The position numbers and the translations under genes were made by a program. From assembly GCF_055900595.2 (NCBI RefSeq), contig NZ_CM148325.1: DNA of 64,000 bases; one strand, written 5' to 3'. Positions 3,696 to 60,149 of the stretch are shown here, one piece after another. The stretch's first letter is position 1. Every line of letters begins with the position of its first letter. The notes under the pieces are model-generated. The model searched no databases. It was not told the DNA's origin and worked only from the letters and a program-made list of their open reading frames with translations.

Positions 3696-4577
3696 ATGAT
3701 GCGAATCGCGCTCTTCCTGCTAACGAACCTGGCCGTAATGGTCGTTTTCGGGCTGGTACTGAGCCTGACAGGGATACAGTCGAGCAGCGTTCAGGGGCTG
3801 ATGATCATGGCCTTGCTGTTCGGTTTTGGTGGTTCCTTCGTTTCGCTTCTGATGTCCAAATGGATGGCATTACGATCTGTTGGCGGGGAAGTGATCGAGC
3901 AACCGCGTAACGAAAGGGAACGTTGGCTGGTCAATACTGTAGCAACCCAGGCTCGTCAGGCGGGGATCGCTATGCCGCAAGTGGCTATCTACCATGCGCC
4001 GGACATCAACGCTTTTGCAACCGGTGCGCGCCGTGATGCCTCTCTGGTTGCTGTCAGCACCGGTTTGCTGCAGAACATGAGCCCGGATGAAGCTGAGGCG
4101 GTAATTGCTCACGAAATCAGTCACATCGCCAATGGTGATATGGTCACCATGACGCTGATTCAGGGCGTGGTGAACACCTTCGTTATCTTTATTTCACGTA
4201 TTCTGGCGCAGCTGGCTGCTGGTTTCATGGGCGGTAACCGTGACGAAGGTGAAGAGAGCAACGGCAACCCACTGATCTACTTTGCCGTCGCGACGGTGCT
4301 GGAACTGGTGTTTGGTATTCTGGCGAGCATTATCACCATGTGGTTCTCGCGTCACCGTGAATTCCACGCCGATGCGGGTTCAGCAAAACTGGTTGGTCGT
4401 GAGAAAATGATTGCCGCGCTGCAACGCCTGAAAACCAGCTATGAACCACAAGAAGCAACCAGCATGATGGCTTTCTGTATTAACGGGAAGTCGAAATCGC
4501 TCAGTGAGTTGTTCATGACTCACCCGCCGCTGGATAAACGTATTGAAGCTCTGCGTACGGGTGAATACCTGAAGTAA
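3696..4577 (+). CDS. htpX: membrane zinc metalloprotease HtpX
   Basis: 293-aa [22 protein letters not shown]..., HEISH zinc motif present in translation. Confidence 0.95.
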
Positions 4578-54795: not shown

Positions 54796-54901
54796 ATGAG
54801 TTGTCTAGTATTTAAGCCTGTTATTAAGGGAGGGCAAATAGACTTGTTCGGACGTCGTGTTTTAGCTGCAAGTAGGTTAAATGCAACACTGACAAGTATT
54901 A

Positions 54902-54938
54902 TCTGGCCTACAATGTCATTGAGGAAATGTAGGCCAGA
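54902..54938. repeat. 11-bp perfect inverted repeat in the yeaC-pncA junction
   Basis: tctggcctaca ... (15-nt loop) ... tgtaggccaga; no adjacent U-run on either strand. Confidence 0.6.
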
Positions 54939-54955
54939 GATGAATCCAACTAATA

Positions 54956-55607: not shown

Positions 55608-56624
55608 TTAATCATCCGGCGTCAGTTCGCCGCGCAGGTTTTGGCTCATGGCCTTGCGAATGGTTTCAGTATCCAGTTCCTGGCTAAGCAGGTAATGCAG
55701 TTTGGTTAGCGTGGCTTCTACAGTCATATCTGCACCGCCAATAACGCCGGCATGGGCGAGGGCGTTACCGGTGGCATAACCCCCCATGTTCACTTTACCG
55801 GACATACATTGTGTCAGGTTGACTACCACAATTCCGCGATCGCTGGCTTCTTGTAATTCTTGCAGGAAGGCTTTGTTTTGTGGCGCATTACCCACGCCAT
55901 ATGAGCGCAGAATCAATGCTTTCACCGGTTGGCGCAGAAAATTGCGCACGACGTCAGCAGAAATCCCTGGATAAATCGTCACTACGCCAATTGGTTGTGG
56001 GGTGATTGGATGAACGATCAATTCCCCTTCACCGTGCGGGGCGGGTGGCGTATTCAAACGACGAATATGGATACCTGCTTCCAGTAACGGAGGAAGGTTT
56101 GGAGAGGCAAACGCATCAAAACCATCGGCATGGGCTTTGGTGGTACGGTTGCCACGATAAAGTCGATTATTAAAAAAGAGAGTTACTTCGTTGATAGGAT
56201 AATTCGCCGCAACGTACAACGCATTCAGCAGATTAATTTGTCCGTCAGAGCGTAACTCAGCCAGCGGGATTTGTGACCCTGTCACAATGACCGGTTTACC
56301 GAGATTCTCGAGCATGAACGACAGCGCAGAGGCGGTATACGCCATCGTGTCGGTGCCGTGCAGAATGACAAAACCATCATAGTCGTCATAATGCGCTTTA
56401 ATATCTTCAGCAATATGCTGCCAGTCTTCTGGCGTCATATCTGAAGAGTCCATCAGCGGCGTATATTCATGAATGGTGAAATCTGGCATCTCCGGGCGAT
56501 GGAATTCCGGCATCAGCGCCAGTTGGCGTTGTAGATGACCTGACACCGGAATATAACCCTGCTCGGAACGCTGCATCCCGATGGTCCCGCCCGTGTAGGC
56601 GACGTAAATTGATTTCTTTTGCAT
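55608..56624 (-). CDS. ansA: cytoplasmic L-asparaginase 1 (AnsA)
   Basis: 338-aa ORF MQKKSIYVAYTGGTIGMQRSEQGYIPVSGH...; start 10 nt upstream of pncA. Confidence 0.95.
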   Translation of the reverse strand: MQKKSIYVAYTGGTIGMQRSEQGYIPVSGHLQRQLALMPEFHRPEMPDFTIHEYTPLMDSSDMTPEDWQHIAEDIKAHYDDYDGFVILHGTDTMAYTASALSFMLENLGKPVIVTGSQIPLAELRSDGQINLLNALYVAANYPINEVTLFFNNRLYRGNRTTKAHADGFDAFASPNLPPLLEAGIHIRRLNTPPAPHGEGELIVHPITPQPIGVVTIYPGISADVVRNFLRQPVKALILRSYGVGNAPQNKAFLQELQEASDRGIVVVNLTQCMSGKVNMGGYATGNALAHAGVIGGADMTVEATLTKLHYLLSQELDTETIRKAMSQNLRGELTPDD

Positions 56625-56755
56625 GATATTGATATGAATGATATCGAAAGAGCAAAAGTATATACGTGAGGGGCAGCGAGCGCACCTGGATACTCTGTGG
56701 ATATGAGAAAAGTCCGGCAGAACGGAGGGATTAGTGTCCCGCCGGAGAAAAGTGG

Positions 56756-57478
56756 TTAATCCTGCAACGCATAGGTTACGGTGGTGACTACGCGTACCGT
56801 TTTATTAATCGCCGTAGGATCATCTTCATCACTGCCACTGGCGAAGATCTGGAACACGCCTTGTGAGGCATCGCTAATTGACCCCACCTGGCTACCTGAG
56901 TCCGTTGCAAATTGTAATGCTGCGTTGCGTGCATCTTTGGTGGCGGCGGCAATCATCTCAGCGCGCAGTGCGCCAATACCATTAAAGCGATAGGCGACTT
57001 TGCTCTCAGCGATAGCGCCCTCCGTAGCGACTTGCAGTTCGTTTAATTTCGCGACGACTTTTTCGACAGCAGCAACATTATGGGTTTTTATCGTCACTGA
57101 CCCGTCTGCGTTATAGCGTGGCATTGTGGGATCATCTTTCAGATAAAAGGAATCTGTTCGCTTGCTTGTCCATTGGCCCAGGGTTATCTCTTTCTCGTTA
57201 ATCCCCTGAGCATTGAGTTCGGCAACAATTTTTTTCTGCGCGTCTTCCAGTTTCGGGAACAGTTCGCCGGGAATATTACCCTTAAAGTTAATCGCAATTG
57301 TTAATTCTGCCGTATCTGCGCGAACTTCTTTTTCAGAAAGCCCACGCACATTTACATAACGGTTATTGGTTTTCAAATGTTTAACACCATCGCCAACAAA
57401 ATAACCACAGGCGCTAATCCCCAGTCCGAGGACGATAGCGGCAATTAAAGAGGGGGCCTTATTCACTGATGACTCCAT
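56756..57478 (-). CDS. SIMPL/DUF541-like putative lipoprotein
   Basis: C-terminal ~240 codons of track ORF 56756..57925; ATG at 57478 (MESSVNK...) or, better supported, GTG at 57466 with GGAG 6 nt upstream giving (M)NKAPSLIAAIVLGLGISAC lipobox signal; family call from recalled SIMPL architecture. Confidence 0.55.
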   Translation of the reverse strand: MESSVNKAPSLIAAIVLGLGISACGYFVGDGVKHLKTNNRYVNVRGLSEKEVRADTAELTIAINFKGNIPGELFPKLEDAQKKIVAELNAQGINEKEITLGQWTSKRTDSFYLKDDPTMPRYNADGSVTIKTHNVAAVEKVVAKLNELQVATEGAIAESKVAYRFNGIGALRAEMIAAATKDARNAALQFATDSGSQVGSISDASQGVFQIFASGSDEDDPTAINKTVRVVTTVTYALQD

Positions 57479-57717
57479 ATCAGATGCTAAATGAGCAAGG
57501 GAATGTAGTGGAGAGAGGGAGTGAAAGACAGTCCGATTCAGGAGTGTGGCCGACAGCATATCGGCCACATTTTTGTGCACAGAAAACCCCCAGCTAGGCT
57601 GGGGGTTCCGGAAAGCTTTCAGCTTTGAGCCAGTTATTAAAACCCCTTTTGATTTGTTAAAACACCTTGCGGTCTGGCAACTGCAAGTGTCAAACAAGAA
57701 ATCAAAAGGGGGTCCCA

Positions 57718-58176
57718 ATGGGGGACGAAAAGAGCTTAGCGCACACCCGCTGGAACTGTAAATATCACATAGTTTTTGCGCCGAAATACCGAAGACTGGC
57801 GTTTTACGGAGAGAAGCGTAGGGCGATAGGCAGTATTTTGAGAAAGCTGTGTGAGTGGAAAAGCGTACGGATTCTGGAAGCAGAGTGCTGCGCAGATCAT
57901 ATCCATATGCTTGTGGAAATCCCACCCAAAATGAGCGTATCCGGCTTTATGGGATATCTGAAAGGGAAAAGCAGTCTGATGCTTTACGAGCAGTTTGGGG
58001 ATTTGAAATTCAAATACAGAAACAGGGAGTTCTGGTGCCGAGGGTACTATGTCGATACGGTGGGTAAGAACACGGCGAAGATACAGGACTACATAAAGCA
58101 CCAGCTTGAAGAGGATAAAATGGGGGAGCAGTTATCGATTCCATATCCGGGCAGCCCGTTTACGGGCCGTAAGTAA
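57718..58176 (+). CDS. tnpA: IS200 transposase TnpA (HUH/Y1 family)
   Basis: Track ORF 57667..58176 trimmed to ATG at 57718: MGDEKSLAHTRWNCKYHIVFAPKYRR...HIHMLVEIPPK...; HUH motif (HIHML) and catalytic-Tyr region recognisable. Confidence 0.92.
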   Translation: MGDEKSLAHTRWNCKYHIVFAPKYRRLAFYGEKRRAIGSILRKLCEWKSVRILEAECCADHIHMLVEIPPKMSVSGFMGYLKGKSSLMLYEQFGDLKFKYRNREFWCRGYYVDTVGKNTAKIQDYIKHQLEEDKMGEQLSIPYPGSPFTGRK

Positions 58177-58252
58177 CGAAGTTGAATGCAAATGTCAGAT
58201 CGTATGCGCCTGTTAGGGCGCGGCTGGTAACAGAGCCTTACAGGCGCATTTG

Positions 58253-58276
58253 AAAAACCTCCGGCTATGCCGGAGG
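58253..58276 (-). terminator. intrinsic terminator 16 nt downstream of sppA stop
   Basis: minus-strand stem cctccgg / ccggagg with 5-nt loop followed by UUUUU; may lie inside the IS200 right end. Confidence 0.6.
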
Positions 58277-58292
58277 ATATTTATTGCAGGAT

Positions 58293-60149
58293 TTAACGCA
58301 CGTTGGCGCAGGTCAGGCAAAACGCATAACGGTTTTGTGGGTCGTTAAACGCTGCCAGCTTGTCGCTTTCACTTTTAACGGTAGAGGCTACCGAGGCCAG
58401 CGGTGCAGGTAACATGGCCTGGAACGCATCTGGCAACATTGCCCGGACAGAACCAGACATATTGTCCATCACTTTGTCGAAGAAGGTCGGTTCATCAACG
58501 TAGTATTCCAGATGCCACTGTTTCACTTTTGCCAGCTCTGCCGCTTTGGCAACCGCATCATCGAAATCCCCGAGACTATCGACCAGCCCGTTAGCTTTTG
58601 CATCCTGACCGGTCCAGACGTGGCCCTGGGCGATTTTATCAATCTGCTCCGGCGTCGAATGACGCGCATCAGCAACCAGCGTGATAAAGCGTTTATAGCC
58701 ATTCTCAATGCTTAACTGCATCATCTGCTGCGCTTCCGGCGGCAGTGCCTTGGTGATAGAAACATCCGCTAGCGGTGAAGTTGAGACGCCATCGGTATGA
58801 ACACCAATCGAATCCAAACTATTTTCTACGGTAGTGATCACGCCGAAGATACCGATAGAACCGGTCAGGGTGCTGGGGTTAGCCACAATGTAATTAGCTG
58901 GCGTGGAAATCCAGTAACCACCAGATGCCGCCATGCCGCCCATCGATACAACCACCGGCTTACCCGCTGCCCTGGCTGCTGCCAGTTCAGCGCGAATCAC
59001 TTCAGAGGCGGTAACGCTGCCGCCAGGGCTATTAACACGCAGAACAATCGCTTTCACTTTCGGGTCAAGGCGAGCGTCGCGGATTTGTGCCGCAGTGGTA
59101 TCACCGCCAACATTCCCCTGAGTTTCCTCGCCATCCATAATTGCGCCATTAGCGAAGACGACACCGATACTGTCACCGGTATCTGCCGGCGTTTTCAATG
59201 CGTAATCGTAATAACTGATGGCGCGATAATTTTTATCAGTCTTACTCCAGCCGAACTCTTTGGTCAGAGCTTTTTCGATTTCGGCACTTGATGCCAGTGC
59301 ATCGACCAGCTTGTTTTCCAGCGCATATTTCGCGGTATCGCCACCGGTTTTGGTTAAACCCTTAAGCAACCCTTGCGCACCAGGGAATACCTGCTGAGCA
59401 GGGATCTGCCGGTTAGCGGCAACAGTATTCAGATAGTTTTGCCACAGCTCACCGATCCAGCGGCTGTCAGCTTCGCGGGCTGCCGGTGACATATCATCAC
59501 GAATAAACGGTTCAACGGCAGATTTATACGTACCCACGCGGAACACATGGGTGGAAACTTTCAGCTTATCCAGCAACGATTTGTAGTACAGGCCGTTGGT
59601 AGCAAAACCGTGCAGATCCACCACGCCTTGTGGAGATAGCCAAATTTTGTTGGCGAAACTGGCGAGATAATATTGCCCCTGGCTGTAGTTCTCGCCTATG
59701 GCATAAACTGGTTTCCCGCTGTCACGAAACTCTTTCAGGGCTTTGCCGATGTACTGCATAGACGGCTGGTCGCCGCCTGCGAAGTTTTTCAGATCCATCA
59801 CGATACCGGTGATATTGCGGTCGTCCTTCGCCTGGCGAATGGTGTTGACGATATCAAACAGTGAGTTTTCCTGCAGACGATCGGAACTGGCACCAAGCAG
59901 CTGGCGGCTTAGCTTACTAAACCGCTGAGAACTGTCGGGTTTATCGACGATTACACCAGATATGTCCAGCAGCAGCGCGCCACGACTGGCCGTTTCTTTC
60001 GAATCACCACCACTGACCTGCATCCAAATCCCCACACCAACCAGTACGAGAAAAATAAAGAACAGGTTAAGTACCATTTCACGGACGAAATTCAGCAGAC
60101 GCCACGTCCATTTAAAAAATCCGGCAATAAATCGCCAAAGGGTTCGCAT
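58293..60149 (-). CDS. sppA: signal peptide peptidase SppA (protease IV)
   Basis: Track ORF 58293..60161 trimmed to ATG at 60149 ([38 protein letters not shown]...); 618 aa. Confidence 0.95.

Follow-up and report, generated by a model that had tools for sequence, protein, structure and literature searches.

The window analysed, a stretch of 64,000 nucleotides, carries sppA (signal peptide peptidase; 58293..60149, minus strand) and ansA (asparaginase I; 55608..56624, minus strand), both identified from the list of open reading frames (ORFs) and the RefSeq annotation. The gap between them, from the sppA stop codon at 58293-58295 to the ansA start at 56624, is 1668 bp, in agreement with the sequence-only reading of this DNA. 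The corresponding gap in K-12 MG1655 is 166 bp (sppA end at 4194 and ansA start at 4361 in locus positions), close to the 0.2 kb given in the same reading. The extra DNA is accounted for by an IS200 element of 711 bp and an intact ORF of 236 codons, the latter missing from K-12.

The ORF is located on the same strand as sppA and ansA and encodes a SIMPL domain-containing protein of 236 aa from a GTG start to a TAA stop (56756..57466, minus strand), or of 240 aa if an alternative in-frame ATG is used (56756-57478, minus strand). It is a real gene and not a chance ORF, because it gives a full-model Pfam SIMPL match, shows dN/dS of 0.06-0.12 against orthologues, and corresponds to a RefSeq CDS of 711 nt annotated at the equivalent position as 'SIMPL domain-containing protein'. 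The gene is thus already known and annotated, and is ordinary as such: it is represented in RefSeq by the proteins WP_001030441, WP_001030438 and WP_032303185, and in O157:H7 Sakai by ECs_2473 ('putative lipoprotein'), to which the gene in the window has 97.6-99.9% nucleotide identity at the same locus, with a difference of four amino acids between the window allele and the O157 allele. A literature search with the RefSeq protein accessions turned up no paper.

As to the start codon, the earlier preference for GTG at 57466 over ATG at 57478 was upheld by cross-species conservation and by the start set by PGAP (the NCBI annotation pipeline), which is also GTG 57466. The Shine-Dalgarno sequence GGAG (57476-57473), 6 nt 5' of the GTG, is part of ATGGAG (57473..57478, minus strand), so that the competing ATG falls within the Shine-Dalgarno-containing hexamer. 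This ATG is not conserved as a start, the matching codon being AAG in both E. albertii and E. fergusonii, in which a GTG is present at the equivalent position with an AAGGA(G/A) Shine-Dalgarno sequence (AAGGAA or AAGGAG). In Citrobacter, ATG stands at the position of the E. coli GTG. On these alignments GTG 57466 is taken as the true start.

The IS200 element (57576..58286, plus strand; boundaries ±2 nt, with a shared CA) was delimited as an insertion relative to IS200-free but otherwise identical E. coli loci, and is the sole copy in the window, lying opposite in orientation to sppA and the SIMPL gene. Its length of about 700 bp, its one Y1 transposase gene, the hairpin at its left end and its structured leader make it a member of the IS200 family. 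The transposase gene tnpA (IS200/IS605 family, 152 aa; 57718..58176, plus strand) was assigned from the ORF and from RefSeq on an identical locus, and the 5' leader (57585..57708, plus strand) is the Hfq-binding RNA STnc490 (Rfam RF01405, 146 bits, E=2e-31). The left-end hairpin CCCCCAGC-CTA-GCTGGGGG followed by TTTT (57583..57605, minus strand; RNA fold of the segment, -22.9 kcal/mol) is a predicted intrinsic terminator toward the SIMPL gene, while the right-end hairpin CCTCCGGC-ATA-GCCGGAGG (58258..58276), detected by terminator scan and RNA fold with a T-run on both strands, is the first terminator encountered by the sppA transcript. IS200 is present at the sppA-ansA site in eight of 5426 genomes, at a locus 99.9% identical to that of the window, and the insertion is recent and specific to one lineage. 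Its distance to the gene start is 97 nt for the ATG, within the 70-100 bp proposed earlier, but 109 nt for the GTG, for which that range was slightly short.

SIMPL domain and N-terminal helix

The Pfam model PF04402 (SIMPL/DUF541) was matched over its whole length (1-205 of 205) by residues 42-236 of the 240-aa form (E=3.2e-18, 67.2 bits), equivalent to residues 38-232 of the 236-aa protein (56771..57355, minus strand). A PF04402 match is precomputed for all 119 listed homologues, whether full or partial. The AF2 model (pLDDT 83.7) displays the two-lobed SIMPL fold, and the best two PDB matches by Foldseek were 7C50 (E=3e-17, TM 0.79 normalised to target) and BP26 of Brucella (4HVZ; E=1e-11). 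The SIMPL/DUF541 resemblance proposed earlier was therefore confirmed by both the Pfam model test and the fold.

Upstream of the domain, codons 4-25 form an N-terminal hydrophobic helix, APSLIAAIVLGLGISACGYFVG (57392..57457, minus strand; mean hydropathy 2.1), which is a single helix spanning residues 4-30 in the AF2 model and carries a Gly motif (G16, G21, G25, G27) conserved across the family. Residues 13-20 read LGLGISAC, ending with a lipobox-like I17-S18-A19-C20 (57407..57418, minus strand) that fits [LVI][ASTVI][GAS]C. The N-terminus MNKAPSLIAAIVLGLGISAC as a whole is composed of an n-region with K3, a 14-residue hydrophobic region A4-I17 and the lipobox, with Cys20 located between residues 15 and 35. 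This N-terminus may act as a signal-anchor; if processed, it would be the signal peptide of a lipoprotein.

A true lipoprotein, with residues 1-19 processed by Lgt/LspA, Cys20 acylated, and the mature SIMPL domain delivered by Lol to the outer membrane (inner leaflet) on account of Gly at +2, is possible but doubtful. The order of K3, hydrophobic region and I-S-A-C is as expected for such a protein, 'putative lipoprotein' is the Sakai annotation, and other SIMPL proteins such as BP26 and YggE carry cleaved export signals; the PGAP name is, on the other hand, merely 'SIMPL domain-containing protein'. Among 110 full-length homologues the Cys was found at the lipobox position in six, all of the Escherichia/Citrobacter clade, and the remaining 104 or so have G, A, S, M or L instead. 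A consensus lipobox is retained in five of the six (E. coli alleles, E. albertii and the Citrobacter-type P0007), but the E. fergusonii sequence is ITVC with a non-consensus V at -1. A loose lipobox pattern was detected in seven of the 110, five of them from the same clade; of 78 genomic homologues that are more remote, one carries a lipobox-like motif. In addition, the sequence G-Y/F-F-V/I-G-x-G following the Cys is kept family-wide, which fits a continuing transmembrane helix and not a lipoprotein tether, as does the single helix through residues 4-30. The lipobox noted in LGLGISAC thus stands as a motif that fits the consensus, but the lipoprotein call made from it is insecure, the Cys being clade-restricted and the modelled helix continuous.

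The charges flanking the helix were also counted for the 110 homologues, with means of 0.9 K/R before the helix and 2.9 K/R over the 15 residues that follow. Such a pattern is unusual for a simple N-in signal anchor and leaves the positive-inside topology ambiguous, a cytoplasmic location of the domain being possible.

Upstream region and expression

Between IS200 and the gene start, two conserved features were recognized. One is the hairpin GTGGCCGA-TATGCTG-TCGGCCAC after sppA (57546..57568, minus strand; alignments and RNA fold), which lacks a T-run in the window allele, bounds the K-12 deletion described below on its left side, and lies just downstream of the point of IS200 insertion. The other is a block (57502..57544, minus strand), identified from a five-sequence alignment and composed of CTCCTGAATCGGACTGTCTTTC (57544-57523), conserved across species, and the TAnnnT element TACATT (57507-57502); it is a candidate promoter or regulatory region. 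A scan for consensus sigma-70 promoters between 56550 and 58400 gave no site, and a search by eye for sigma-E, sigma-54 and PhoP-type motifs in the upstream sequence gave nothing convincing. Given the negative sigma-70 scan, the gene may rely on read-through from sppA, which IS200 would abolish.

Transcription of the gene is documented in O157 Sakai, in which ECs2473 was up 11.7-fold in the presence of lettuce cell-wall polysaccharide (PMC4940412). In one Sakai condition sppA (4.2-fold), ECs2473 (11.7-fold) and ansA (3.9-fold) were elevated together (PMC4940412). The same study includes a decrease of sppA by 4.8-fold without significant change of ECs2473, and a stronger induction by lettuce extract of ECs2473 than of sppA (PMC4940412).

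These data bear on the proposal that the gene, normally expressed by sppA read-through, is silenced by IS200 in this strain and is becoming a pseudogene, which is judged rather unlikely. In its favour are the joint increase of the three genes in one condition, the hairpin after sppA, which is without a T-run in both E. coli and E. albertii and so makes read-through plausible, and the lack of a detected sigma-70-like promoter between IS200 and the start. Since IS200 added two hairpin-plus-T-run terminators in the direction of sppA transcription, sppA read-through should indeed be blocked. In E. fergusonii, however, a canonical terminator made of a hairpin and T7 follows sppA ahead of the SIMPL gene, which must therefore have its own promoter in that species; the block conserved in four species is situated between the IS200 insertion point and the gene; and ECs2473 did not change significantly when sppA fell, and exceeded sppA in its response to lettuce extract. 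The ORF is, moreover, intact, within a locus 99.9% identical in the eight genomes with the same insertion. The sequence-only reading had suggested that IS200 might have cut the gene off from upstream transcription. The terminators at both IS200 ends agree with this suggestion, but the conserved 109-bp upstream region is intact, and an effect of IS200 on the gene is plausible but partial, with the native promoter probably within this region.

Subfamily assignment

Search with a family profile gave E=3e-62 for 10am_A (residues 7-236) and E=7e-60 for 7c50, both from Campylobacter jejuni, as compared with E=1.7e-5 for BP26. Pairwise comparison with the C. jejuni SIMPL-like protein gave 35% identity over 229 residues (E=2e-35), and the homology is colinear, including the N-terminal helix and the C-terminal motif ATxxARxAA...DSG..G.I..A.QG. 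The protein therefore groups with the C. jejuni SIMPL-like protein (PDB 7C50), the type member of its subfamily, and is not an orthologue of YggE.

That it nevertheless duplicates the function of YggE, the oxidative-stress defence protein, is improbable. Both proteins contain a SIMPL domain and the YggE equivalog NF008299 was the sole NCBIfam match, but this match scored just 19.5 bits where the cut-off is 249 bits, and by E-value the family profile favours the C. jejuni protein over BP26 by about 57 orders of magnitude. The architecture also differs, the subfamily having a conserved hydrophobic anchor helix and YggE a cleaved signal peptide.

A role in anti-phage defence was rejected, as no family among the PADLOC defence models matched at E<=0.1. 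The gene neighbourhood was uninformative as a functional clue: when the ORFs of 80 distant loci were clustered, no neighbour was found in more than 13 loci. The SIMPL gene stands alone, with no neighbour conserved across these 80 loci.

Ancestry, proposed role and related systems

The distribution check that had been proposed for E. coli identified the gene in 943 of 5426 complete genomes (17%), always in a single copy on the chromosome at the sppA-ansA site, and the K-12-type empty site in 4481 (about 83%), all with a deletion of about 790 bp in common. Strains of ST131 and O157:H7 possess the gene, and K-12 and strain 536 lack it. This presence/absence polymorphism cuts across phylogroups B2 and E. 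A natural IS1-disrupted allele also exists beside the allele with IS200 upstream.

The order and orientation sppA-gene-ansA are the same in E. albertii (86% aa identity for the SIMPL protein), E. fergusonii (70%) and a Citrobacter (68%), the last on a contig that encodes an SppA with 97-98% identity to proteins of the C. freundii complex; this synteny was obtained from exact-protein look-ups, and the distribution in Enterobacteriaceae is incompletely sampled. A scan of genome contigs gave, among the matches listed, relatives of 32-46% identity (Bacteroidales, Micavibrio, Thalassospira, Sutterella and others), with no Escherichia or other Enterobacteriaceae among them. The GC content of the gene is 48.0% (flanks 50-52%, window 49.5%). 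Judging from the dN/dS of 0.06-0.12, the gene is under purifying selection where present. Given this value and the shared location in the three relatives, the gene is ancestral at sppA-ansA in Escherichia, with occurrence in some Citrobacter too, and was deleted in K-12; it is not an insertion. The description of the gene as not expected from K-12 synteny was correct in that K-12 lacks it, but the expectation itself was K-12-biased, since the gene is syntenic in these three relatives.

The opposite polarity, with a horizontally acquired islet and K-12 in the original state, is very improbable: the patchy occurrence (17% of E. coli), the GC3 of 46% against 51-55% for the flanks, the environmental origin and 50-58% identity of the nearest non-enterobacterial relatives, and a dS to E. 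albertii roughly double the flanking-gene value are outweighed by the identical position and orientation in the three relatives with a divergence order matching the flanking genes, by the upstream hairpin and downstream sequence collinear with K-12, by the lack of any integrase, repeats or tRNA at the locus, and by the two E. coli allele classes (at least 99% and about 97.6% identity), which differ about as much as their flanks (dS 0.08 against 0.07-0.11). A mobile island was likewise rejected on the synteny and collinear flanks.

Altogether, the locus very probably contains an intact, selected and ancestral gene for a protein with one N-terminal helix and a full SIMPL domain, deleted in K-12 and recently joined by IS200 upstream. 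The empty allele now carried by about 83% of E. coli would have arisen in the K-12 lineage through one deletion, about 790 bp long, from just past the sppA hairpin to the stop codon of the gene. The identity of the gene, its fold family, occurrence, ancestry and start codon, and the structure of IS200 are established, while membrane topology, type of anchor, oligomeric state, role in the cell and promoter position are predictions. The N-terminal helix is predicted to hold the SIMPL domain at the periplasmic face of the membrane, most probably as a signal-anchor that stays uncleaved, which would match the rest of the family, and in Escherichia maybe as a lipid anchor via Cys20. The domain may then serve as a stand-alone structural or protective factor of the envelope, not as part of an operon-encoded machine, and would probably self-associate in the manner of BP26. 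As sppA read-through should stop at the two IS200 terminator hairpins, expression would proceed from the conserved 109-bp native upstream region.

K-12 thus represents the derived state at sppA-ansA, and a conserved and selected protein, predicted to belong to the envelope, segregates in E. coli. The significance beyond annotation is slight, although the clean natural presence/absence system, together with the IS200-upstream and IS1-disrupted alleles, may help to find out what the anchored SIMPL proteins do, a subfamily with a crystal structure from C. jejuni. It is conceivable, though with low probability, that a single Gly/Ala-to-Cys change in Escherichia/Citrobacter converted a signal-anchored inner-membrane protein into a lipoprotein, possibly of the outer membrane, and that the polymorphism is maintained by a trade-off, for instance between envelope protection in plant or gut niches and the cost of an exposed antigen or phage target. 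The lipobox of the Escherichia clade offers a small, testable case of such a possible switch in membrane anchor.

Compared with known systems, the IS200 copy shows nothing unusual, the IS200 elements of Salmonella and E. coli being also about 710 bp long and carrying a lone tnpA and the STnc490 leader, with a hairpin at the left end and a terminator at the right. ECs_2473 and its RefSeq counterparts are the same gene, from which the window copy differs by the upstream IS200 but not in substance. E. coli YggE shares the SIMPL domain and the organism, but is a distant paralogue at another locus with a different N-terminus. BP26/Omp28, the periplasmic immunogenic protein of Brucella, has a signal peptide that is cleaved on export and assembles into a channel-like 16-mer; it belongs to the same Pfam family and is aligned by the profile with residues 38-178, but with 17% identity and TM of about 0.5, and the conserved N-terminal hydrophobic helix is a property of the E. 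coli protein. For the C. jejuni structures 7C50 and 10AM no paper was found in the literature search, a text match to 7C50 in PMC10212520 being spurious, and the nine chains in entry 10am are by themselves no proof of an oligomer. The C. jejuni SIMPL-like protein (7C50/7C51; full length in 10AM as 'Periplasmic protein') is among the closest known systems, being colinear with the E. coli protein from its N-terminal hydrophobic helix through to the C-terminal end, of the same length class (226-236 aa) and with the shared motif EMIAAATxxARNAAxxFAxDS...G.I..ASQG, but it differs in the host, which is of another phylum, and in its helix, which is without Cys or lipobox.

A biallelic site between sppA and ansA

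The genes sppA (58293-60149, minus strand) and ansA (55608-56624, minus strand) are separated by 1668 bp in the window. The corresponding interval of K-12 MG1655 is 166 bp without any annotated gene, in agreement with the sequence-only reading, which had put the K-12 spacing at about 0.2 kb and proposed that the SIMPL gene is missing in K-12. When the window was aligned with L002, an E. coli locus that lacks the insertion but otherwise hardly differs, and with K-12, the interval was resolved into two components: a 711-bp insertion (57576-58286), located 6 nt past the sppA stop codon, and about 790 bp missing in K-12, starting just past a conserved hairpin after sppA (57546-57568) and ending at the stop codon of the SIMPL ORF (56756).

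Among the 5426 complete E. coli genomes scanned, 943 carry the gene, always chromosomal and single-copy, with 97.4-99.9% identity and the annotation 'SIMPL domain-containing protein', and 4481 have the K-12-type empty junction. Of the 5425 genomes that gave any match, 5424 are in one of these two states, which makes the site essentially biallelic. The gene is carried by, among others, ST131, O157:H7, O55:H7 and O145; the empty site is found in K-12 and B2 strain 536. The gene is named ECs_2473 ('putative lipoprotein') in O157:H7 Sakai. In a published microarray study, ECs2473 was listed as missing from MG1655, and on lettuce cell-wall polysaccharide it was up 11.7-fold, with sppA up 4.2-fold and ansA 3.9-fold under the same condition (PMC4940412). 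It is a known, annotated accessory gene. Three complete genomes (NZ_OX030701.1, NZ_AP022032.1 and NZ_AP021998.1) contain IS1 within the gene, annotated as two SIMPL CDS fragments and an IS1 transposase, and these alleles represent natural knock-outs.

The order sppA-gene-ansA is the same in E. albertii (86% amino acid identity), E. fergusonii (70%) and the Citrobacter-type metagenomic contig L007 (68%; Logan SRR14739086). The K-12 flanks are collinear with the window on either side of the indel, neither integrase genes nor repeats were seen around it in the alignment with K-12, and the GC content of the gene is 48.0% vs 49.5% for the whole window. On the basis of these observations, the simplest history is that an old resident gene was lost in one deletion, the empty allele now being predominant in E. 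coli. The gene, described as not expected in this interval, is instead best taken as ancestral, with K-12 carrying the deletion. The dN/dS of the gene was 0.06-0.12 in every comparison with unsaturated dS and that of sppA and ansA 0.01-0.05; judged from these substitution ratios, the gene is under purifying selection, yet evolves faster than its neighbours. Between E. coli and E. albertii, synonymous sites of the gene have diverged almost twice as much (dS 1.21) as those of sppA, ansA and pncA (0.63-0.68), which could come from weak codon bias or deeper coalescence of the segment.

The partial SppA of L007 is 97-98% identical to C. freundii-complex proteins (C. youngae, C. portucalensis and C. 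freundii), and a C. freundii-complex strain (L007, with the homologue P0007) has the orthologue between sppA and ansA. The gene seems to be rare and polymorphic in Citrobacter too. Among the matches listed, the closest relatives outside the Escherichia/Citrobacter clade are metagenomic proteins (50-58% identity), and more distant ones (32-46%) belong to Bacteroidales, Micavibrio, Rickettsiales, Thalassospira, Sutterella and Acetomicrobium.

A second common polymorphism of presence and absence lies 1.7 kb from that at sppA-ansA. In K-12 the ydjE-ydjL cluster separates pncA from yeaC, and its length in Sakai is about 10.4 kb. It is missing in the window, where pncA directly adjoins yeaC (54796-54955). 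The clusterless junction was found in 1088 of the 5426 E. coli genomes and also in E. fergusonii.

Start codon, fold and membrane anchor

The ORF on the minus strand covers 56756-57466 from a GTG codon (236 aa) and extends to 57478 from an ATG. GTG also occupies this position in E. albertii and E. fergusonii, and the sequence ahead of it is AAGGAA or AAGGAG. The ATG codon of E. coli is AAG in both species. The Citrobacter orthologue has ATG where E. coli has GTG, and the same GTG was chosen by PGAP (the NCBI annotation pipeline). GTG is thus, as first proposed, the conserved start.

Membership in the SIMPL family, also proposed from the sequence, was confirmed by a full-length Pfam match to SIMPL/DUF541 (E=3.2e-18). 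The sole NCBIfam match was YggE, below threshold (19.5 bits vs a cut-off of 249), and therefore the protein is a SIMPL protein, yet not a YggE orthologue. When a profile built from 29 homologues was searched against PDB sequences, it matched 10am_A ('Periplasmic protein', 231 aa, 9 chains) at E=3e-62 and 7c50/7c51 at E=7e-60, and BP26 (4hvz) only at E=1.7e-5. In the AlphaFold model (pLDDT 83.7), residues 4-30 form an N-terminal helix and a two-lobed alpha/beta domain comes after it; the top PDB matches of the model by Foldseek were 7C50 ('Simpl-like protein from Campylobacter jejuni'; E=3e-17, TM 0.79) and 4HVZ (E=1e-11). The C. jejuni protein shows 35% pairwise identity to the window protein across 229 residues. 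The Foldseek PDB library comprised entries released up to April 2026, 10am not among them. In this entry the C. jejuni homologue is present at full length, with its N-terminal hydrophobic helix, in 9 chains; a literature search for PDB 10am found no paper.

The N-terminus MNKAPSLIAAIVLGLGISAC agrees with the lipobox rule, having K3, a hydrophobic region and I-S-A-C with Cys at position 20, and this part of the earlier lipoprotein assignment stands. In the family alignment, however, the Cys is limited to E. coli, E. albertii, E. fergusonii and the Citrobacter-type P0007, the E. fergusonii motif being ITVC, in which the V at -1 departs from the consensus. In the remaining homologues, the residue at the Cys position is G, A, S, M or L. 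A loose lipobox pattern was detected in seven of 110 full-length homologues, five of them in the Escherichia/Citrobacter clade, and in one of 78 genomic homologues. The residues G16, G21, G25 and G27 surrounding the Cys are invariant or nearly so across the alignment. Given the clade-limited Cys and the invariant Gly pattern, the family trait is a conserved hydrophobic helix running past the Cys position, and in the AlphaFold model one helix passes through residues 4-30. An uncleaved signal-anchor is the more probable state, and a lineage-specific lipoprotein, with its matching lipobox, the less probable one. Over 110 homologues, K/R residues average 0.9 in the short tail at the N-terminus (encoded, with the hydrophobic helix, at 57392-57466 in the window) vs 2.9 in the 15 residues after the helix. 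A periplasm-facing domain on an N-in anchor usually shows the opposite charge distribution under the positive-inside rule.

IS200 and transcription of the SIMPL gene

The 57576-58286 insertion places IS200 upstream of the SIMPL start at 57466, as had been noticed. It contains tnpA of the IS200/IS605 family (57718-58176, plus strand; RefSeq annotation of the identical locus L001) and the leader RNA STnc490 (57585-57708, plus strand; Rfam, 146 bits), the Rfam match being given on the tnpA-sense strand. Strong hairpins are present at either end: the one on the right (58258-58276) has a T-run after it on both strands, and the one on the left (57587-57605) has TTTT after it in the direction of the SIMPL gene. 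There is one IS200 copy in the window; IS200 occupies this site in eight of the 5426 complete genomes, each having 15-17 matching places. At the left end (57583-57708 region), the T-run is solely on the strand leaving the element and facing the SIMPL gene, which fits a terminator of leftward IS200 antisense RNA; read-through of this terminator would enter the SIMPL gene.

After no more than about 20 nt, transcripts from sppA would run into the right-end terminator and then into the left-end one, so that read-through from sppA into the SIMPL gene should be lost. The weight of this loss depends on where the promoter of the SIMPL gene is located. Several observations favour an own promoter. In E. 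fergusonii, sppA is separated from the gene by a canonical terminator (hairpin plus T7). The sequence CTCCTGAATCGGACTGTCTTTC, a block at 57544-57523, is shared by E. coli, E. albertii, E. fergusonii and Citrobacter, as is a TAnnnT element at 57507-57502, and the IS200 insertion point lies upstream of both. Against an own promoter are counted the sppA hairpin of E. coli, which is without a T-run, and a consensus sigma-70 scan upstream of the gene, which found nothing. Silencing of the gene by IS200 is, on balance, unlikely. The conserved pattern CTCC-GAA-C-GACT...TTTC plus TAnnnT (57502-57544) extends from E. coli to Citrobacter (loci L004, L006 and L007), and the block and TAnnnT, without a sigma-70 consensus match, could be a candidate activator-dependent promoter.

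Function in relation to known SIMPL proteins

No conserved neighbour gene was found across 80 distant loci, defence-system models gave no match, and Foldseek returned nothing meaningful past SIMPL proteins. The best-supported picture is a structural one, of a SIMPL domain tethered to the membrane that acts by itself in the envelope. BP26 forms an oligomeric periplasmic assembly, and YggE is involved in stress protection. By analogy with these two proteins, the SIMPL protein may, very tentatively, self-associate and play an envelope-protective or scaffolding role.
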